From: a virus
Virus genome (UHGV): UHGV-0116252
Length of the DNA stretch: 13,012 nucleotides
Direction: 5' to 3' (one strand)
Positions 5,446-12,962 of this stretch are shown piece by piece. Position 1 is the first letter of the stretch. The number at the start of each line of letters is the position of its first letter. Position numbers and translations under genes: made by a program. The notes under the pieces are model-generated. The model saw only the letters and a program-made list of their open reading frames with translations, was not told the DNA's origin and did not search any database.

Positions 5446-5784
5446 CTATTTCCCTGAATTTACGACGAAACTGTTCGAGCGGGCTGAAGCACTCATGCTC
5501 ATAGCCTTCGCGGAGGTAGATAACTCGTTGTGTTTCCGGCTCCCAACGAATGACTCTGACGGGCACTCCGTAGTGATCTTTGAACCAGCGGTTAACTTGT
5601 CGCAAAGGACTGTCTCCTTCTGCCGGTTGAAATCACCCACAGCCCACTCAGCAAAGCTGTGGGTTACAATTTCCCTGTCACCTGGTACATTAACTGCATA
5701 GCAATACTCCACCTTCGCTTTTCCACCCGGTACAGGAAGCGCAATCAGTTGCGAGCGACGGTAGTGTGTTGTTAAACTGTTCAT
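5446..5784 (-). CDS. Hypothetical protein, possibly frameshifted
   Basis: ATG 5784 overlaps the upstream stop (ATGA). The first ~55 codons look protein-like; the C-terminal half is Ser-rich and low complexity, while the -1 frame over 5426..5605 gives a more protein-like sequence ([58 protein letters not shown]). Confidence 0.35.
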
Positions 5785-6344
5785 GCGTTAGTTTCTCCAC
5801 AGTCACGACACGCCACGGCGCCCGGAGCTGCACACTCGCGGGCGTCATTACTTTCTGAAATGCAAAAGATTTTGTAGACCAGTGCTGCATGCTCCTGCAG
5901 CTTCGAAATTGAGAGATACAGCTCGTCGTTAATTGCTGTCTTCTCATGCGGTTCCACCACACCGTCTTCGATTGCCGAACGAATCTGTCTGGAATAACTG
6001 CCAATCTGTTCAATGACTTCCAGCAGGCGCTGGTTAATATCGGCGTTGTCCACATCCTCGACGTCAGGAAGAGACACAAAGACGCCATTTGCAGACTGCG
6101 CCACAGCATCAGCAATGAAGTGAGTGCCACCAGCACGTTGTAAAATCATTGCCCATCCCAGCGGGAAAATCTGATCGCCATCGGCACGAAGGCGGTTAAA
6201 TAATGCGTTTTCTGTTACATCCAGCCAGTCAGCTGCTTCAGCGTAACCACCCGGCAACGCCGCGATAGTTTTTCTGACAGCTTTCACGTACCACTCAGGC
6301 TGTTTTTCTACTTTCCAGTGATGCTTACCCACGGTTAGCCTCAT
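5781..6344 (-). CDS. CII-like / YdaT-family early regulator (tentative)
   Basis: 187-aa ORF directly downstream of the YdaS-like cro gene; the segment [25 protein letters not shown] resembles the HTH region of phage CII-like (CP76/YdaT) proteins as I recall them. Position matches cII in lambdoid maps. Confidence 0.45.
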
Positions 6345-6375: not shown

Positions 6376-6576
6376 TTAATCTTTCGGATAGATATCCGGT
6401 CTTAAGTCAGATTTCGTAATTGCACCTGACGTGCATTGCTCAAGTTTTTTAGCCAGCACAAAACTGGCTTTTTTATAACCATTGAAAACCAGCCGTAAGT
6501 AGCCTGGTGTTGAGCCAACTTTTCCGGCCAACTCACCCTGCTGTTCTTTGGTTAAAGAGTCCCAATACGCTTTCAT
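6376..6576 (-). CDS. Cro-like repressor (YdaS/DUF1019-type HTH)
   Basis: 66-aa product MKAYWDSLTKEQQGELAGKVGSTPGYLRLVFNGYKKA...ITKSDLRPDIYPKD; the C-terminal LRPDI motif resembles YdaS-type Cro. ATG 6576 with GGAGGT 9 nt upstream. Divergent from the CI gene. The track ORF 6376..6879 is an artefactual upstream extension. Confidence 0.7.
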   Translation of the reverse strand: MKAYWDSLTKEQQGELAGKVGSTPGYLRLVFNGYKKASFVLAKKLEQCTSGAITKSDLRPDIYPKD

Positions 6577-6666
6577 ACAATATGTACCTCCGGTATACAT
6601 ATTACATGATTGAGATGAACCTTCAAGATACTTGTACCTTAACGGTACAAGGGTTTTAATTTCGTT
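6577..6666. promoter_or_regulatory. Divergent immunity-region promoters and operators (pR/pRM-like)
   Basis: Perfect palindrome CTTGTACC-ttaac-GGTACAAG at 6631..6651; imperfect palindrome ATATGTA-N9-TACATAT at 6580..6602. Candidate pR on the minus strand: -35 TTGAAG (6626..6621), 16-bp spacer, -10 TAATAT (6604..6599). Candidate pRM on the plus strand: -35 TTGTAC (6632..6637), -10 TTTAAT (6655..6660), with no SD before the CI ATG at 6667. Confidence 0.6.
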
Positions 6667-7341
6667 ATGAAAACAATCCATGACATCCGGCGGTCTAACG
6701 CCAGAAAACTGAGAGATGGTGTTGGCGGGAATTCTTCCTTTGCCACCATGATTGATCGCGAGCCAACCCAGACCAGCAGGTTTATGGGAGATGGTGCAAC
6801 TAAAAATATCGGTGACAGCATGGCACGGCACATCGAAAAATGTTTCGACCTGCCTGTCGGATGGCTTGATCAAGAACACCAGACAACGAACATCACAAAA
6901 AAACCTGACGTTTCAATCACTAACAAACAAATAACGTTAGTCCCTGTCATATCATGGGTACAGGCCGGAGCATGGAAAGAAGTTGGCTATTCTGAGGTTG
7001 ATTTGAGCACAGCAGAAACTTATCCCTGCCCTGTACCCTGTGGCGAAATGACTTATATCTTGCGGGTGATTGGTGATTCAATGATTGATGAGTACCGCCC
7101 GGGAGACATGATTTTTGTTGATCCTGAAGTCCCTGCCTGCCACGGTGACGACGTTATTGCATTGATGCACGATACAGGCGAAACCACCTTCAAGCGGTTG
7201 ATAGAAGATGGAACACAGCGTTATCTCAAAGCATTAAACCCAAACTGGCCTGAGCCTTACATTAAGATTAACGGTAATTGCTCTATAATTGGTACAGTGA
7301 TTTTCTCAGGAAAACCAAGAAGATACATAATAAAGGCCTAA
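6667..7341 (+). CDS. CI-type prophage repressor (HTH plus S24 LexA-like peptidase domain)
   Basis: 224 aa; N-terminal HTH region ending in VGWL, linker, then C-terminal S24 autocleavage domain with Ser motif VIGDSM and Lys motif TFKRL. Divergent from cro. Confidence 0.85.
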   Translation: MKTIHDIRRSNARKLRDGVGGNSSFATMIDREPTQTSRFMGDGATKNIGDSMARHIEKCFDLPVGWLDQEHQTTNITKKPDVSITNKQITLVPVISWVQAGAWKEVGYSEVDLSTAETYPCPVPCGEMTYILRVIGDSMIDEYRPGDMIFVDPEVPACHGDDVIALMHDTGETTFKRLIEDGTQRYLKALNPNWPEPYIKINGNCSIIGTVIFSGKPRRYIIKA

Positions 7342-7352
7342 TCAATATTTAT

Positions 7353-7376
7353 AACCTGCTTCGGCAGGTTTTTTTA
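7353..7376 (+). terminator. Rho-independent terminator after the repressor gene
   Basis: Stem aacctgc (7353..7359), loop ttcg, stem gcaggtt (7364..7370), followed by a run of T to 7375. Begins 12 nt after the CI stop. Confidence 0.65.
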
Positions 7377-7379
7377 TAC

Positions 7380-7412
7380 TTGACAATGTACCTTTGGGAT
7401 ACATAATGTATC
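7380..7412 (+). promoter_or_regulatory. pL-like sigma70 promoter with overlapping operator palindrome
   Basis: -35 TTGACA (7380..7385), 16-bp spacer, -10 CATAAT (7402..7407). Perfect palindrome GATACAT-a-ATGTATC (7398..7412) overlaps the -10, and an ATGTACC half-site (7386..7392) matches the OR half-sites. Confidence 0.55.
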
Positions 7413-7797
7413 TAAAAGAAACACAGCACAGGCAAGATTAAACAAAATTTGGTTGTAACACGGCGTATGGCACATGCGTCGTTAGCGGTCTGGGGACGTT
7501 AAAGGGGACAATCCACTCCTTGCTCGGGCAAACAAACCAGGTAGCCGGAATGTGCAAGCCACAGCCAGGTATGAGCGATTGATTCACCATCAAGGCGATA
7601 CGGTGTGACCACCAGGGAAGAGTCCTGGCTACAACACGAGAGCGCACTTCATCGACTCAACTTTGAGCTTTGTCGTTAAATTTTGAAATGGCGGAGTGCG
7701 CTCCCGGTTGTGGTGAACAGGTGTTTAACGGGAACTCCCTGCCCGTTACCCGGTTCGATTCCGGGCGCCCATCATCAATTTGCTGTGTTTAGTCTTT

Positions 7798-7826
7798 GCC
7801 CAGTCCGCACGATGGGCCATTTTTTC
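7798..7826 (+). terminator. Candidate weak intrinsic terminator within the ORF-poor region
   Basis: GCCCA (7798..7802) pairs with TGGGC (7813..7817) around a 10-nt loop, followed by cattttttc with six T at 7820..7825. Short stem, so weak. Confidence 0.3.
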
Positions 7827-7918
7827 ACACAGCCAGGTTTTATCGCTGTGCCTGAGTCCCCAACAGGAGAGGCCAAACCCGCAGCGTGACACCAGGGAAA
7901 GACCGGAGGAAGTACCAC

Positions 7919-7986
7919 GCCTGACCAGCGTTGACCATGAGCCTGACCAGCTCAAAACAGGAAAGACCAGCCCGGGCCTGACCAGC
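7919..7986 (+). repeat. Three exact copies of the 11-mer GCCTGACCAGC in non-coding DNA
   Basis: Exact copies at 7919..7929, 7941..7951 and 7976..7986, interspersed with related GAAAGACCAG (7961..7970) and TTGACCATGAG (7931..7941). Confidence 0.8.
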
Positions 7987-8126
7987 CCTGTACGGTCGTA
8001 ATGGAAACATAACGACGCCGGAAACGTAACCGGCACCCTTTAGATGGCAAAAGACCCGCACAAGGCGGGCCAGTTACCCCGAACGGCGACCAAACCATTC
8101 GGATTTATCACAAGTGACCAAACTTG

Positions 8127-8142
8127 TGATGAGGAAAGACCA
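8127..8142 (+). repeat. Copy 1 of conserved 16-nt motif TGATGAGGAAAGACCA, followed by ACG not ATG
   Basis: Same motif as at 8527 and 11699, including the GAGGA Shine-Dalgarno core; preceded by the hairpin TCACAAGT-gaccaa-ACTTGTGA (8108..8129). The position corresponding to the start codon reads ACG (8143..8145). Confidence 0.7.
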
Positions 8143-8191
8143 ACGACAGAGCCGCTGATCGGTTCTGAGTATACCCCACTAAGGAGTCGCT

Positions 8192-8512
8192 ATGGAAGCG
8201 CGCACAATCCCAGTAACACTCTTTATTCATTATGCAACTTCAACTTTCAGCCATGAAAAGCTGTTTATTGCGACGGTTGATATGTCAAAAAATTTTCCAG
8301 ACAGGTACATCCTTCTGGAAAGCCGCGAAATTGAAATTACCGTCAACCAGCCCCAGCCAATCGACATCATCGGTTTACAGGTTGAGCAGCTGCGTGAGCA
8401 AAAACAGAAAACAGCCGCCGACGCCCAACAGCGTATTGCTGCTATCGATGACAAAATCCAGCAGTTACTTTGCATCGAATACACGCCAGATACCGATGAA
8501 ATCCCCTACTAA
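8192..8512 (+). CDS. Hypothetical protein (106 aa) with predicted C-terminal coiled coil
   Basis: ATG 8192 preceded by AAGGAG (8181..8186) with 5-nt spacing; first convincing ORF downstream of the pL-like promoter. No family recognised. Confidence 0.6.
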   Translation: MEARTIPVTLFIHYATSTFSHEKLFIATVDMSKNFPDRYILLESREIEITVNQPQPIDIIGLQVEQLREQKQKTAADAQQRIAAIDDKIQQLLCIEYTPDTDEIPY

Positions 8513-8526
8513 AGACCACTGACCTG

Positions 8527-8542
8527 TAATGAGGAAAGACCA
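8527..8542 (+). repeat. Copy 2 of conserved motif TAATGAGGAAAGACCA directly before the ATG at 8543
   Basis: Identical 15/16 to copy 1; supplies the Shine-Dalgarno for the 737-aa gene. Confidence 0.7.
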
Positions 8543-10756
8543 ATGACCATTTTTAACGGCTTGTTAGAAGCGAAAAAAGGCGCGCTCAAAAACGGCGCGA
8601 TCCCGGCGCTGGCCATCGCCATCGACGCCCCTAACAAAAAAGTTGCCGAGAACATCATCATCGGCAAATTGTGGGAAGCCTACCCTGACCACGGCGACAA
8701 CTATTTCAAACCTAAAATCTGGGAAGATGCCCCGGGCCAACCGCGCCCAGGCGTTGGTGAGTTTGATGAGACGTTCGCCACAGAACACAGTTTTGATGGC
8801 GAAAAATGGGTAGTTAACACCCCCGTTGTAGATAGCGGTTCAGCAGATATCGCACAGGTTAACGACCTGATGAAACTGCCGGCTCGTGAACGATTCGCCG
8901 CCGTTCTGCTGTTCAGCCACGACGCCAACGAAGTCGACAGTGAATTGCTTGCGCAGACGCGTGAATACCTAGAGATGCTCGACAACAGTGATACTGACAG
9001 TGAGGATGAGGTTGACGCATTTAACCGCATCGTTCTTGATGCCATGGTGGCGTGTAAGCCCATCGAGTACATGCATATTGCTGGATTGAATAATCTGGTA
9101 CATGCAATTTTGGCAAGTTGCGATACCCAGGAACAAAACCCGACCAGTTGGACTATCTCCAAATTTATAAAAAAATGGGTAGAGAATCCCGGTAAACGCG
9201 ATGAAATGCTGCCGGAGGTAAAACTAGAAACAGCATCCGCACGTCCTTACCAACAGACTCACGCCACACTGGAACGTGAAATTGCCTGCGCCCTGTTACC
9301 CGTTGGCCCGGAAAAAATCACCCCCAGCGTCCTGAAAGCGGCAGACGAAATAATCAGCCAGGACCGGGAGGATTTTAAACGCTGGTCAATGGCCTTGCGC
9401 ACAACGGATCAGATCCTTGCCTATGACCGCGCATCAGTATTCGGTGTTATTCAGCGCGCCCCCGCAAAAGACACGTACCACTTCCCGCAATCCCTGCGCA
9501 GTCACATCGACAACTGGCTGCAAGCTAACGGGCAGCGTGATGCAAATGCTGTTGAAGAGAAGCCAAAGGAAGCAGCACCAAAGGATGATGTAAAAGTCAC
9601 CAACCACGGCGGCGGGCGATTCTCAATTGATGGAATGATGTCAGAAACACCCTCAAATCAGGGCGAAAAAAGCGAAGCAGCAAATGCTGGAGAACGTAGT
9701 TTGCAGCAGTTGCGTGAGCGGTTTGTCACGCCTCGCCATGTGTATGACGTACCTGAAAATAACGCCGTCTCACAGAGGGAACCTGCAGCTATTACCCCGG
9801 CAGAAGAGACTCCTCCACAAGAAAAACTTAGCGAGCAGGTAAAGGATCTGGTGCAGAACGTTGACGCGCTGGTTGAGCGGATCCATACCGAAGAGCACAA
9901 GCGGCAGAATGCAATCTCAGCTATCGAAACGGAGTTAAAGGACTCCGACGACACAGATAACCTGGCATTGTGGAAGAACGTATTCAAAACCGATGAGCGC
10001 TTCACCAGTGCTTTCTCTCAGAACGGCGGCGGCACATCCATCAACGGCACTTATATAGCGATGAAAGCGACTCGCGAATTTGGGCCGTTTGGTATTGGCT
10101 GGGGTGTAGAGGTGGTGGAAGAGCGTTTTGATAAAGGCGCACCGATAGTTCGCAAAAAACAGGTTGGTGAAAAAATAGAATGGGATCTGATTCAAGACGG
10201 TGTTGGCGGGTACCTATGTGAAATGCACCACACCATGAAAGTTAGAGTCTGGTACATATTGAATGGAGTGCGCGGTGAGTCCGAGGCTTACGGATGCACA
10301 CCTTATATCTACGACACTAAATACGGACCAACAAGCGACGGCGAAGCACCGAAGAAATCCTGGACGGATGCTGTTAAGAAAGCGCTATCCCCTCTCGGAT
10401 TCAGCGCCGATATTTTCATGGGCCTGTACGACAATCCGGAATACCGCCAGAGGAATAAAGCTGAGTTTGATATCAAGAATGCCAGCGAGAATGCGGAAGA
10501 TGCTACCCGTCTGCGTAAGGAACTGGATGAGAAGCTTATCAACGTTGCCAATACGCTGGCCTCCGCGGTAACCACTAACGAAGTAAACAAGGTATTTGGC
10601 CTCATCGCCCGCGAAGTGGATGTACACCGAAAAGCAGCAGAAGCCAAAGGCGATAAAGAATATTCATCGTATCTGGGATCGCGCCTGCGCCGTATCACCG
10701 ACATCAAAACTGAACGCCTCGCCGCCCTCACCGCTGCACAGGAGCAAACCGCATGA
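8543..10756 (+). CDS. Rad52/Sak-type single-strand annealing protein with an unrecognised ~490-aa N-terminal region
   Basis: Uninterrupted 737-codon ORF. C-terminal ~250 aa carries Rad52-fold blocks: GGGTSINGTYIAMKATREFGPFGIGWG (compare human RAD52 [27 protein letters not shown]), KVRVWYILNGVRGESEAYG, and KKSWTDAVKKALSPLGFSADIFMG (compare [21 protein letters not shown]). N-terminal 490 aa has no motif I recognise and includes an acidic stretch DNSDTDSEDEVD. Confidence 0.7.
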   Translation: MTIFNGLLEAKKGALKNGAIPALAIAIDAPNKKVAENIIIGKLWEAYPDHGDNYFKPKIWEDAPGQPRPGVGEFDETFATEHSFDGEKWVVNTPVVDSGSADIAQVNDLMKLPARERFAAVLLFSHDANEVDSELLAQTREYLEMLDNSDTDSEDEVDAFNRIVLDAMVACKPIEYMHIAGLNNLVHAILASCDTQEQNPTSWTISKFIKKWVENPGKRDEMLPEVKLETASARPYQQTHATLEREIACALLPVGPEKITPSVLKAADEIISQDREDFKRWSMALRTTDQILAYDRASVFGVIQRAPAKDTYHFPQSLRSHIDNWLQANGQRDANAVEEKPKEAAPKDDVKVTNHGGGRFSIDGMMSETPSNQGEKSEAANAGERSLQQLRERFVTPRHVYDVPENNAVSQREPAAITPAEETPPQEKLSEQVKDLVQNVDALVERIHTEEHKRQNAISAIETELKDSDDTDNLALWKNVFKTDERFTSAFSQNGGGTSINGTYIAMKATREFGPFGIGWGVEVVEERFDKGAPIVRKKQVGEKIEWDLIQDGVGGYLCEMHHTMKVRVWYILNGVRGESEAYGCTPYIYDTKYGPTSDGEAPKKSWTDAVKKALSPLGFSADIFMGLYDNPEYRQRNKAEFDIKNASENAEDATRLRKELDEKLINVANTLASAVTTNEVNKVFGLIAREVDVHRKAAEAKGDKEYSSYLGSRLRRITDIKTERLAALTAAQEQTA

Positions 10757-11553: not shown

Positions 11554-11778
11554 ATGCTGCGATGGCAACCGGGAGCAACTCTGCTCTCCGCATTTGATAT
11601 CAAAATTGGCCGACTGTCGGCCAGCGTCAGGAAACAGGCTGTGACCGAGTCTGATATTGCCCGTGCCTGCAAGGCGGCAGATGACGCAATAAGCTACATA
11701 ATGAGGAAAGACCATGAGAAGCGATCACGACATAATCACCAGAGAAGAAATGGTCGAGCTGACGGGAAGCCCACTTAA
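11554..11778 (+). CDS. Hypothetical small protein (weak call)
   Basis: ATG 11554 with GGAGG 6 nt upstream. The N-terminal ~50 codons look protein-like; the 3' end overlaps the xis-like gene in another frame. Confidence 0.3.
   Translation: MLRWQPGATLLSAFDIKIGRLSASVRKQAVTESDIARACKAADDAISYIMRKDHEKRSRHNHQRRNGRADGKPT
11699..11713 (+). repeat. Copy 3 of conserved motif TAATGAGGAAAGACC directly before the ATG at 11714
   Basis: Same motif as at 8127 and 8527; supplies the Shine-Dalgarno for the excisionase-like gene. Confidence 0.7.
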
Positions 11779-11977
11779 ATCAAAGCAATGTGAGGCTCTT
11801 CGCCGGGCTGGAATTTTCTTCATGGAAAGGGCTGACGGGCACCCAAAAACAACCTGGGGCCATTTCATGAACCCAATAAAATTTCGCAATTTACAGGAGG
11901 TGACGACGCGAAAAGATGATGAACCTGATTTTGGAGCAATATTTAATGGCCGGAAAGAGAAAGAACCCAGCAGATAA
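11714..11977 (+). CDS. Excisionase-like small DNA-binding protein (DUF4224-like)
   Basis: 87 aa directly upstream of and overlapping the integrase gene; the segment ITREEMVELTGSPLKSKQCEALRRAGIFF resembles DUF4224 proteins that precede phage integrases. Confidence 0.55.
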   Translation: MRSDHDIITREEMVELTGSPLKSKQCEALRRAGIFFMERADGHPKTTWGHFMNPIKFRNLQEVTTRKDDEPDFGAIFNGRKEKEPSR

Positions 11978-12962
11978 CTGGATGCCGCCTCGTGTTTACC
12001 AGGGCAAAGCGGCCTACGAATTCAGGAATAAAGATAACAAAGCGATACGCCTGTGCGCATTGGATGCGCCACGATCAGCCGTATGGCTGGCATATGAAAA
12101 AGCGGTCGGTGACGAAAAAGAAAGAAATACTTTTCAGGCGCTCGCGGAACAATTCATGACCTCCCCTGATTTTATGGATTTGGCAGTCGAAACCAGGAAA
12201 GACTACACAAAATATTCCGGAAAAGTTCTGCCTGTCTTCGGGAAGATCGACCCGGATAAAATCAAACCTGAACATATTCGGCGCTATATGGATCAACGCG
12301 GTTTATCAAGCCGAACTCAGGCAAACAGGGAAAAAAGCTTTATGTCCAGGGTATTCCGTTGGGGTTATGAACGAGGTTATGTCCAGAGGAATCCTTGTCA
12401 GGGAGTTAAGCAGTTTAAAGAGACAGCACGCGAACGTTATATTACGGATGAAGAATATCAGGCCGTTTATGAAGTATCTCCTGATGTTGTTCGCGTGGCA
12501 ATGGAGATTGCCTACTTATGCGTGGCCAGACAGAGTGATGTACTTTCATTGCAGAAAGACCAGCTGTTCGATTCCGGGATCTACATTCGTCAGGGAAAAA
12601 CCGGCGTTAAGCAAATCAAAGCCTGGTCGCCTCGTCTGCAGAAAGCGATAGCTCTGGCTCGTTCTCTGCCATTAAAACCGGGAATCAGTAGCCTGTTTGT
12701 GATTCATCAAACTACCGGAGGCAAGTACACCCGTGATGGTTTTAACTCTCGTTGGCGTGATGTCAAAGCGGCAGCACAGGAAAAATATCCTCATCTGCAA
12801 ATAGACTTCACATTTCATGATCTGAAAGCAAAAGGTATCTCTGATCTGGAAGGCAGCCTGGAAGAGAAGCAAGCAATTTCCGGGCATAAGAACCCACGAC
12901 AGACAGCAGCATATGACCGAAAAGTTAAAGTAGTGCCCGTAGTTGGTGGCCAGAGAAAATGA
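11916..12962 (+). CDS. int: Tyrosine recombinase (lambda-family phage integrase)
   Basis: C-terminal catalytic region aligns with lambda Int: ARQSDV (Arg I), FTFHDLKAK (His, with Lys where lambda has Arg311), ISGHKNPRQTAAYDRK (His and Tyr nucleophile). Start is ambiguous: ATG at 11916, 11946 or 11982. Confidence 0.9.
   Translation: MMNLILEQYLMAGKRKNPADNWMPPRVYQGKAAYEFRNKDNKAIRLCALDAPRSAVWLAYEKAVGDEKERNTFQALAEQFMTSPDFMDLAVETRKDYTKYSGKVLPVFGKIDPDKIKPEHIRRYMDQRGLSSRTQANREKSFMSRVFRWGYERGYVQRNPCQGVKQFKETARERYITDEEYQAVYEVSPDVVRVAMEIAYLCVARQSDVLSLQKDQLFDSGIYIRQGKTGVKQIKAWSPRLQKAIALARSLPLKPGISSLFVIHQTTGGKYTRDGFNSRWRDVKAAAQEKYPHLQIDFTFHDLKAKGISDLEGSLEEKQAISGHKNPRQTAAYDRKVKVVPVVGGQRK

Follow-up and report, generated by a model that had tools for sequence, protein, structure and literature searches.

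A conserved non-coding RNA locus with an RprA-like small RNA module downstream of the pL-like promoter of a lambdoid/Rac-like phage

The virus genome UHGV-0116252 (13,012 nucleotides (nt); this whole stretch is called the window, and all coordinates refer to it) carries between a pL-like promoter and the first credible gene behind it (orf106) a region (7414-8191) that is the subject of this study. Here, we found that this region is a real and conserved non-coding RNA locus. It probably is the RNA-level, untranslated leader of a pL operon under repressor control, a mosaic assembled from conserved RNA modules, one of which is a small RNA (sRNA) resembling RprA. A preliminary description of this DNA had considered a structured non-coding RNA, and the covarying helices, a conservation above that of the neighboring genes, the lack of a conserved open reading frame (ORF) and the strand-specific motifs bear this out. 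The RprA-like sRNA with its terminator, a widespread structured RNA of about 180 nt (here called module A) and the link to tRNAs had been missed.

The region downstream of pL is conserved and non-coding

The features that delimit the region are as follows:

7380-7407, plus strand: pL-like sigma-70 promoter TTGACA-16-CATAAT, 11/12 consensus matches
7387-7403: operator-like palindrome TGTACC-N5-GATACA inside the promoter spacer
6583-6599 and 6633-6649: operator-like palindromes (TGTACC-N5-GGTACA type) between cro and cI, the site at 7387-7403 being a third one of the same kind
7353-7376 and about 7798-7826, plus strand: terminators, the former at the end of cI
8192-8512: orf106 (phrog_2479, function unknown, no Pfam match), first credible gene after pL

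Within 7300-8600 the promoter at 7380-7407 was the sole strong sigma-70 match, and the same scan yielded no second consensus promoter ahead of orf106. Transcription is predicted to start at about 7414. Since the operator-like palindrome in the spacer resembles the cro-cI sites, we consider this promoter a repressor-controlled pL; the operator-like pattern had 4 matches, as compared with 0.26 expected by chance. An intrinsic terminator follows about 410 nt downstream of the pL start and thus separates pL from all early-left genes. Promoter and terminator together assign transcription to the plus strand.

No ORF of at least 40 amino acids (aa) with a Shine-Dalgarno (SD) sequence was present in the region, as had been described before, and none of the ten ORFs of this minimal length matched a Pfam family. 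A weak DUF6531 match in one of them was below threshold (19.3 bits vs a cut-off of 24.1) and was set aside. The only PHROG match was phrog_6855 (function unknown), which covered residues 13-39 of a minus-strand ORF (7438-7647). This match is confined to the invariant RNA core of module A, and thus the family was probably built on spurious ORF calls.

The repeat density of the region, which had also been noted before, was far above chance and restricted to one strand. GACCA was observed nine times on the plus strand (1.1 expected) and not at all on the other strand, and GGAAAGACC and CTGACCAGC each occurred three times (0.01 expected in either case) on one strand only. Both copies of an 18-nt repeat pair (7603-7621 and 7886-7903) were confirmed on the sequence. 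Six previously listed hairpins (7693-7704, 7727-7747, 7749-7765, 8017-8034, 8055-8069, 8108-8129) were re-checked and found in place. The region had also been called GC-rich, which holds true only mildly (53.5% vs 50.6% for the whole window and 45% for the two flanking genes). Relative to shuffled sequences the folding energy gave z = -2.4 for 7414-7830 and z = -2.7 for 7828-8200. The minus strand folds equally well (z = -2.8), so that energy alone cannot define the strand. The idea of a CsrA sponge was abandoned, as GGA was not enriched (16 observed vs 14.7 expected).

A homologous gap of about 1 kb between repressor and orf106, which is left blank in PGAP annotations, was found in a common E. 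coli prophage located by tRNA-Leu/tRNA-Cys and also in phage BUCT708. The leader of the window is 71% identical to that of the BUCT708/L190 type, with long blocks exceeding 90%. The DNA of orf106 and of the exonuclease gene behind it is 62% identical, and the two proteins share 41% and 51% of their residues, respectively. Judged by these DNA identities (71% vs 62%), the leader is under stronger constraint than the genes downstream. Comparison across related prophages, which had been proposed in the preliminary description, revealed compensatory base changes in the helices, and conservation follows helices rather than codons. When the species-representative genomes of GTDB were scanned for orf106, a single locus was obtained (Escherichia whittamii); host names are lacking for the viral contigs from which the taxonomic breadth of the whole leader was judged.

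A 32-nt spacer in the type I-E CRISPR (clustered regularly interspaced short palindromic repeats) array of E. coli strain 23CRST013 is identical to window 7904-7935 (and to L211:413-444). The adjacent CAT at 7936-7938 reads as an ATG protospacer-adjacent motif on the other strand. This identity indicates that E. coli acquired immunity against the non-coding leader.

The first terminator belongs to an RprA-like sRNA

RprA is an Hfq-dependent sRNA of Enterobacteriaceae. It is cut by RNase E in the presence of Hfq at GA/AUU (the slash marks the cut), which gives rise to a stable 3' species of about 50 nt (PMC5222698). The last 47 nt constitute the active species and are sufficient for part of the regulation by RprA (PMC9262595). 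The corresponding features of the window are:

7778-7826, plus strand: RprA-3'-like sRNA (Rfam RprA match, alignment to K-12 rprA)
7777/7778, plus strand: predicted RNase E site CA/AUU
7780-7796, plus strand: 17-nt core TTGCTGTGTTTAGTCTT
about 7798-7817, plus strand: terminator hairpin
7820-7825, plus strand: U tract

The covariance search against Rfam that the preliminary description had called for returned no gathering-level family in the window, and among the sub-threshold matches there were only RprA and tRNA-Sec. RprA (RF00034) was the top match in the region (37.4 bits, E 0.011, over 7717-7827). Window 7778-7826 aligned to nt 59-106 of K-12 rprA, and this alignment spans the core TTGCTGTGT(G/T)TAGTCTT, the terminator GCCCA.../...TGGGC and the U tract. 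The core is identical to that of K-12 RprA in 16/17 positions. Thus, the conserved 3' part of RprA (last 47 nt with single-stranded core, terminator hairpin and U tract) is present in the window. Its 5' stem-loop and the rpoS/csgD pairing region (about nt 30-62) are not, and a tRNA-derived element is found there. Of the AACGAAUU motif the window retains AAUU only. The predicted cleavage context reads CA/AUUU in the window and GCGA/AUU in many relatives, as judged by motif comparison. Some relatives also resemble nt 20-58 of RprA.

To define the distribution of the core, 81 loci sharing an orf106 homologue (39-99% protein identity) were surveyed. The 17-mer of K-12 RprA was found without mismatch in 54/81 of them, with one mismatch in 16/81 and with two mismatches in 1/81. 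The remaining 10/81 lacked the core, which is therefore dispensable for the operon. The terminator stem occurred in at least 8 different compensated forms across relatives. The RprA-like version with its flanks was present in 472/5426 E. coli genomes and was unannotated among the matches listed. The literature searched describes no RprA-like RNA from a phage; the svsR and HnrS RNAs are distinct from it.

When module A is missing, as in the relatives L175, L146 and L188, the minimum free energy (MFE) fold pairs the core with the conserved 5' leader GCACTAACCACGCGGCAGTT at about -20 kcal/mol, a value reached by 0.6-6% of the shuffles. By this predicted pairing, an RNA with three hairpins is closed and its core would be inaccessible in the primary transcript. 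In the window the 5' leader might mask the seed similarly (-15.9 kcal/mol, reached by 3.8% of the shuffles). However, the same leader variant occurs in phages that lack the RprA-like core, and thus the pairing in the window is probably coincidental. Targeting of the phage itself was also dismissed: the best duplexes of the sRNA with the phage's own transcripts were no better than those of shuffled seeds.

The setting of the phage copy differs from that of its chromosomal counterpart. K-12 rprA is located between ydiK and ydiL under an RcsB-dependent promoter, whereas the window copy resides on a prophage about 365 nt downstream of pL with its operator. Where RprA has its 5' stem-loop and the rpoS-pairing region, the phage copy has module A and the tRNA-derived element instead. 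Judged by its sequence, the RprA-like module represents a new variant of a known sRNA family, which is phage-borne, presumably pL-controlled and part of a long precursor, and which at the same time provides the operon with its first terminator.

Module A is a widespread structured RNA

Upstream of the RprA-like sRNA the transcript would contain module A, which was defined by alignment, covariance model and distribution:

7460-7639, plus strand: module A, structured RNA of about 180 nt
7537-7558, plus strand: invariant core CCAGGTAGCCGGAATGTGCAAG
about 7559-7583, plus strand: hypervariable hairpin segment
7585-7591/7597-7605, plus strand: helix
7612-7628, plus strand: 3' hairpin CCAGG-GAAGAGT-CCTGG, three covarying pairs, four pair types

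When 68 distinct copies were aligned, a six-helix model had 97% of its cells paired, as compared with 31-48% for slid controls, and 7 pairs showed changes on both sides. The alternative long-range pairings GCACAT/ATGTGC and TCTGG/CCGGA were equally compatible with the alignment, but they are invariant and thus cannot be judged. The hypervariable segment varied in length (25, 26, 27, 28, 29 and 31 nt); since these are not steps of three, an ORF running through it is ruled out. The covariance model that we built detected one copy in the window (187.7 bits, plus strand only), no copy in HK022 and no distant homologue in leaders of the L157/L209 type. In relatives the model also detects the 3' hairpin of module A by itself, and the repeat copy at 7886-7903 is similar to this hairpin.

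The core CCAGGTAGCCGGAATGTGCAAG was present in at least 120 IMG/VR contigs. Module A was found in 1880/5426 complete E. coli genomes (about 35%; up to 4 copies). In addition, 591 plasmids from Escherichia, Salmonella, Klebsiella and Shigella carried it. Most of these plasmids are non-mobilizable and measure about 90-100 kb, the size expected of P1-like phage-plasmids. Among the matches listed for genomes and plasmids, the module was unannotated throughout. Four genomic contexts were distinguished. In cdtI-type lambdoid phages module A follows pL, and in Rac-like prophages it follows pL and a different leader. In the P1-like SJ46 it is located directly 3' of a tRNA(CAT) and ahead of dnaB/ban, and in the epsilon15-like TL-2011b it is succeeded by a real tRNA-Arg(TCT) and then by a terminator. 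In addition, a tRNA lies directly 5' of module A in L024.

No Rfam family matched module A, even with the laxest filters (1-kb and 276-nt scans), and its core sequence was not found in the literature searched. An intron or mobile element was rejected, as neither group I/II boundaries nor a target-site duplication were seen. Module A, which is very widely distributed, appears to be a structured RNA that has not been described before. Most likely it would serve the small RNA fused to it as a cis-acting scaffold for folding, stability or processing.

ORFs that are annotated or callable over module A or an adjacent tRNA look spurious (window 7438-7647 on the minus strand, L126:3681-3800, L005:3248-3499). 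The coding sequence of TL-2011b among them (L005:3248-3499) overlaps the tRNA-Arg (L005:3242-3318).

The window itself is a recombinant. cdtI, Ayreon and Stx2c phages share 95-97% identity in their cI-pL region with its part 7340-7561, and a Rac-like E. coli prophage shares 97.6% identity with 7538-8200. This combination of left and right parts was found in no complete E. coli genome. The crossover of the two phage lineages falls into a 24-nt invariant core of module A (7538-7561), which on these alignments would thus act as a recombination linker joining phage modules.

Module A is extended by a helix and a tRNA-derived element

Between module A and the RprA-like sRNA the following elements were identified:

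7640-7648/7696-7704, plus strand: long-range extension helix GAGCGCACT/AGTGCGCTC of 9 base pairs (bp), enclosing a variable insert
from 7707, plus strand: conserved linker GGTTGTGG, followed by a degenerate tRNA-derived module up to 7769
7712-7715/7766-7769, plus strand: short closing pairing GGTG/CGCC
7727-7747, plus strand: stem-loop AACGGG-N9-CCCGTT (AGCTGG/CCAGCT in L156/L158)
7749-7765, plus strand: T-arm-like hairpin CCCGG-TTCGATT-CCGGG (TCCGG/CCGGA in L156/L158)

The extension helix is formed by different letters in other lineages (GAGAGCA/TGCTCTC in TL-2011b and cdtI-type phages, GGAAAAGGCG/CGCCGTTTCC in L024), and the MFE fold of the window recovers it. The letters GGAG-tgcg-CTCC at 7693-7704 had been interpreted as a local hairpin. 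They are present, but as relatives keep the long-range helix with an entirely different sequence, they more likely contribute its 3' strand.

Behind the helix there is a conserved GTTGTGG, which in TL-2011b runs straight into the acceptor stem of tRNA-Arg. The two hairpins that follow in the window covary, as indicated in the list. The second one has the 5-bp stem and the TTCGANT loop of a tRNA T-arm, but no cloverleaf was recognized. ARAGORN called neither a tRNA nor a tmRNA in the window, and with the Rfam tRNA models there was no gathering-level match (tRNA-Sec 19.3 bits vs a threshold of 47). The Rfam RprA model instead aligns the hairpins at 7727-7747 and 7749-7765 to stem-loops 1 and 2 of RprA. 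On the basis of position-specific homology in relatives, the element at 7707-7769 is likely tRNA-derived, although it is not a tRNA.

In L209 (about 2110-2230, corresponding to -390 to -270 from orf106), the sequence at this position (GATTGTGG) precedes a tRNA-like gene, in which D- and T-arms are canonical and about 60 nt are inserted; ARAGORN did not call it.

Read-through transcripts would carry a structured 5' untranslated region

Downstream of the terminator the transcript would continue into a 5' untranslated region (UTR) with the following elements:

7828-8191, plus strand: structured 5' UTR of about 365 nt, ending at the ribosome-binding site of orf106
7828-7850, plus strand: hairpin
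7896, 7960 and 8133, plus strand: copies of GGAAAGACC (SD-like cassette)
7920, 7942 and 7977, plus strand: copies of CCTGACCAGC, spaced 22 and 35 bp
8017-8034, plus strand: hairpin GCCGG-N8-CCGGC (counterpart in relatives GCCGG-GAAAGA-CCGGC)
8055-8069, plus strand: hairpin, 12 distinct compensated versions
8079-8102, plus strand: hairpin with conserved loop GACCAAACC, 17 distinct compensated versions
8107-8130, plus strand: hairpin with conserved loop GACCAA, 23 distinct compensated versions
8131-8145, plus strand: vestigial gene-start cassette GAGGAAAGACCAACG, with ACG at 8143 where relatives have ATG
8148-8166, plus strand: last hairpin
8181-8186, plus strand: SD sequence AAGGAG of orf106

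In the stem at 8108-8129, 7/8 pairs were changed on both sides across relatives, and blocks of the UTR were more than 90% identical to those of a phage whose orf106 protein is only 41% identical. The 3' strand of the last hairpin (CGGTTC, 8160-8165) can pair instead with the SD region GGAGTCG (8183-8189). This modeled alternative suggests a translational switch, in which the last hairpin may mask or unmask the SD sequence of orf106.

A cassette TAATGAGGAAAGACCA(A)TG, which combines stop codon, SD sequence and start codon, was also observed at the starts of orf737 (8543) and of the DUF4224 gene (11714), where it covers 8527-8545 and 11699-11716; the version with ACG covers 8125-8145. GGAAAGACC is the phage's own SD cassette. 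At the position corresponding to 8131, relatives carry an upstream ORF (uORF) of 39-47 aa that overlaps the start of orf106.

The modules are combined differently among relatives

Most relatives lack module A. Their RNA from pL to the terminator is about 170 nt long and consists of a conserved leader, hairpins with GAAAGA loops, the RprA-like core and the terminator. A block of 240-350 nt, made up of module A, the helix and the tRNA-like part, separates GCAAC from AATTGCTG of this RNA in BUCT708, the E. coli prophage and the window, and cdtI-type phages have module A without an RprA-like part. As either part occurs without the other, the modules are separable and have been shuffled.

The leaders of L166 and L156 (about -640 to -490 and -775 from orf106) contain an inserted ORF of about 48 aa (MSKKQMTDLLIKDHGITWEQAYQYL...), which is conserved between the two lineages and may be a real small gene.

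Proposed mechanism and alternative explanations

Taken together, these data are consistent with the following sequence of events. Loss of the repressor, either by induction or upon infection, would fire pL, and most transcripts would end at 7826. The resulting precursor of about 410 nt would be cut by RNase E at CA/AUU, and perhaps by tRNA-processing enzymes at the tRNA-like element. An Hfq-type sRNA of about 48 nt released in this way would mimic processed RprA on host targets. The fraction of transcripts reading through, which is needed because there is no second promoter before orf106, would carry the structured UTR, the last hairpin of which would mask or unmask the SD sequence of orf106. 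In this manner the UTR would set the level of the downstream genes for the RecE-like exonuclease, Gp157, excision and integrase.

Several observations weigh against this mechanism. The start of transcription, the efficiency of termination, the processing sites and Hfq binding are all deduced, and an efficient terminator would demand read-through, but no antiterminator was found. The folding z-scores are modest and the minus strand gave a similar value. The RprA score of 37 bits is below the gathering threshold of 70, and so are those of relatives (44.5 and 56.2 bits). Only the 3' half is clearly homologous to RprA, the rpoS-pairing region is not conserved in the window, 10/81 related loci do without the core and no sRNA target stands out within the window. 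Finally, the 17-nt core may be kept partly as a strand that closes a helix with the 5' leader and not as a trans-acting seed.

The last point leads to a different explanation, according to which the sequence from about 7414 to 7826 or beyond forms one large structured RNA. Such an RNA might be a ribonucleoprotein scaffold, a tRNA mimic or a decoy against host tRNA- or RNA-directed defences, and the RprA-like stretch would mainly be a structural strand. We consider this unlikely. It would fit the location at the very start of the early operon, since such starts often house anti-defence functions, and it would also fit the association of module A with tRNAs and T-arm-like hairpins that several unrelated phages show. 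Moreover, in cdtI-type RNAs a distal ACCACAAC is the partner of GTTGTGG(T), the window has CCCCAAC at 7858-7864, and predicted pairing of the RprA-like core with the 5' leader is found in relatives and, in a weaker form, in the window. However, the independent occurrence of the modules points to separable units, the core-pairing leader variant of the window is shared with phages lacking the core, and no Rfam family of such a kind matches.

The main mechanistic rival is a put-like role of module A. Here, a cis-acting effect of module A or of the whole leader on RNA polymerase would carry the enzyme past the terminator at 7826 and past Rho-dependent sites of the long untranslated leader, and thus into the early-left genes. 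The layout resembles that of HK022, an N-less lambdoid phage with a non-coding structured RNA (putL/putR) just after pL and a terminator downstream to be passed. In the window an N-like gene is missing, pL and the terminator have no ORF between them, all early-left genes lie behind this terminator with no second consensus promoter, and module A is promoter-proximal in lambdoid contexts (cdtI and Ayreon share the order of pL, RNA, terminator and genes). Put-like RNAs have been suspected in N-less lambdoid phages (PMC12315714). Nevertheless, processive antitermination of this kind is quite improbable for several reasons. A blastn-short comparison with the HK022 immunity region gave only chance words of 9-16 nt, none of them in the pL-nun or cro-cII intervals, and thus no similarity to the put regions. 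Module A has at least five helices over about 180 nt, as compared with two stem-loops in about 70 nt for put (PMC9378689). While put follows both pL and pR, module A has one copy in the window (plus strand) with none after pR, and its occurrence is not confined to leaders. In most related prophages the terminator is present and module A absent, and in P1-like phages module A sits after a tRNA and before ban/dnaB, where there is no terminator to pass. A 16-nt word common to the leader of a relative and HK022 lies inside HK022 cII and was set aside as chance.

Similar considerations apply to lambda nut, with which the region shares the position directly downstream of pL. The hairpin CCAGG-GAAGAGT-CCTGG and, in relatives, GCCGG-GAAAGA-CCGGC have a 5-bp stem and a purine-rich GAA.A loop, which we take as a likeness to boxB. 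The stem of the former hairpin (7612-7628) covaries; its loop GAAGAGT comprises 7 nt (6-7 nt in the two hairpins) as compared with 5 nt in the GNRA-like pentaloop of boxB, and the same hairpin also occurs in P1-like and epsilon15-like phages. No boxA (CGCTCTTA or TGCTCTTTA) with up to one mismatch was found on the plus strand of 7414-8191. The first gene is not N but orf106 (8192), which is followed by the RecE-like exonuclease. Thus, the region does not belong to the nut/put class that the preliminary description had put forward, although an antitermination-like activity is conceivable.

A more far-reaching reading of module A is speculative and rather doubtful. According to it, module A (7460-7639 plus the extension helix to 7704) would be an undescribed autonomous class of structured phage RNA that travels among unrelated temperate phages, fused to tRNAs, tRNA-like elements or sRNAs. 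It would act in cis on its own transcript in one of two ways: as a new kind of antiterminator RNA, altering RNA polymerase such that the sRNA terminator is passed, or through docking on the tRNA-like elbow, which would direct processing or give protection from host nucleases. Here, it would be coupled to a mimic of processed RprA that reprograms envelope-stress and RpoS-linked regulation at induction.

It is very improbable that decayed or very small genes, or leader peptides whose translation matters, account for the region. Relatives do have ATG-initiated short ORFs behind an SD-like cassette GAGGAAAGACCA, among them the uORF overlapping the start of orf106, and the window shares this cassette with ACG at 8143; some relatives carry the 48-aa ORF in the leader, and phrog_6855 matches a minus-strand ORF. 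However, no uORF is conserved among relatives, as the short ORFs differ in length, frame and sequence and their start codons are missing in the window. Insertions and deletions do not come in steps of three, conservation tracks helices instead of codons, no Pfam family is matched and the PHROG match spans nothing but the invariant RNA core. The earlier suggestion of decayed genes was abandoned, since relatives have just short and variable uORFs and no N-like gene at this position.

Equally little speaks for a DNA-level array (extra operators, iterons, an origin or a recombination site) made up of the CCTGACCAGC and GGAAAGACC repeats: these are far above chance, the former with a spacing of 22 and 35 bp, and two phage lineages join in the invariant core of module A, but every repeat copy is on one strand, the repeats are unlike the operator palindrome and are part of hairpin loops or of SD-like cassettes, which stand ahead of real genes as well, and the covariation of the flanking stems is explained only by selection on a single-stranded nucleic acid. 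Of the protein-binding array proposed earlier, only a version at the RNA level is possible, as the motifs are hairpin loops or SD-like cassettes.

Comparison with other phage and host RNAs

Hfq-type RNAs that are released from longer transcripts have precedents. DicF of prophage Qin is cut by RNase E from a longer operon transcript. In a similar way, 3'ETS-leuZ is an Hfq-type RNA cut by RNase E from a longer tRNA-bearing transcript (PMC5222698). The phage RNA described here differs from both in that it copies a core-genome sRNA and that its precursor contains a large extra structured module.

Small RNAs beside the repressor gene of temperate enterobacterial phages include the svsR/C0293-like RNAs, P1 C4, P4 CI and isrK (PMC12803456). 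However, svsR, located within the 3' end of cI, is of unrelated sequence, and C4 and isrK belong to the pR operon and are absent from the window. In Ayreon (L126:1397-1585, minus strand) the C4 antisense RNA (80.7 bits) and isrK (58.9 bits) were detected in the pR-side operon, where they adjoin an 'immunity region'/antirepressor gene; a gathering-level Rfam scan of the window gave neither RNA.

If the proposed mechanism holds true, a repressor-controlled RprA mimic would allow the phage to switch on part of the host RprA regulon at induction or infection. RprA has roles in envelope stress, RpoS, biofilm and conjugation control. Such sRNA mimicry would be distinct from the known phage anti-sRNAs. 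Module A is blank in PGAP and Rfam, and phage annotators sometimes call ORFs over it. Annotation would benefit from its definition, and a new RNA function linked to phage tRNAs could come to light. The layout of pL, a non-coding RNA with terminator and the recombination and integration genes raises the question of how N-less lambdoid/Rac-like phages pass their first terminator.

Genomic setting

The window carries a lambdoid/Rac-like immunity region. Apart from orf106, the genes of this setting are:

5781-6344, minus strand: CII-like gene
about 6376-6575, minus strand: YdaS-like cro
6667-7341, plus strand: S24-peptidase repressor (cI), with its own terminator downstream at 7353-7376
8543-10756: RecE-like exonuclease of 737 aa (orf737, phrog_2489)
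next downstream: Gp157, then a 60-aa ORF, then a DUF4224 protein (gene start 11714)
11916-12962: tyrosine integrase

Related E. coli prophages (L003:10559-10663, L004:10582-10611) are integrated beside tRNA-Leu/tRNA-Cys at the end of the glyW-cysT-leuZ operon, the 3' trailer of which is itself a known sRNA sponge.

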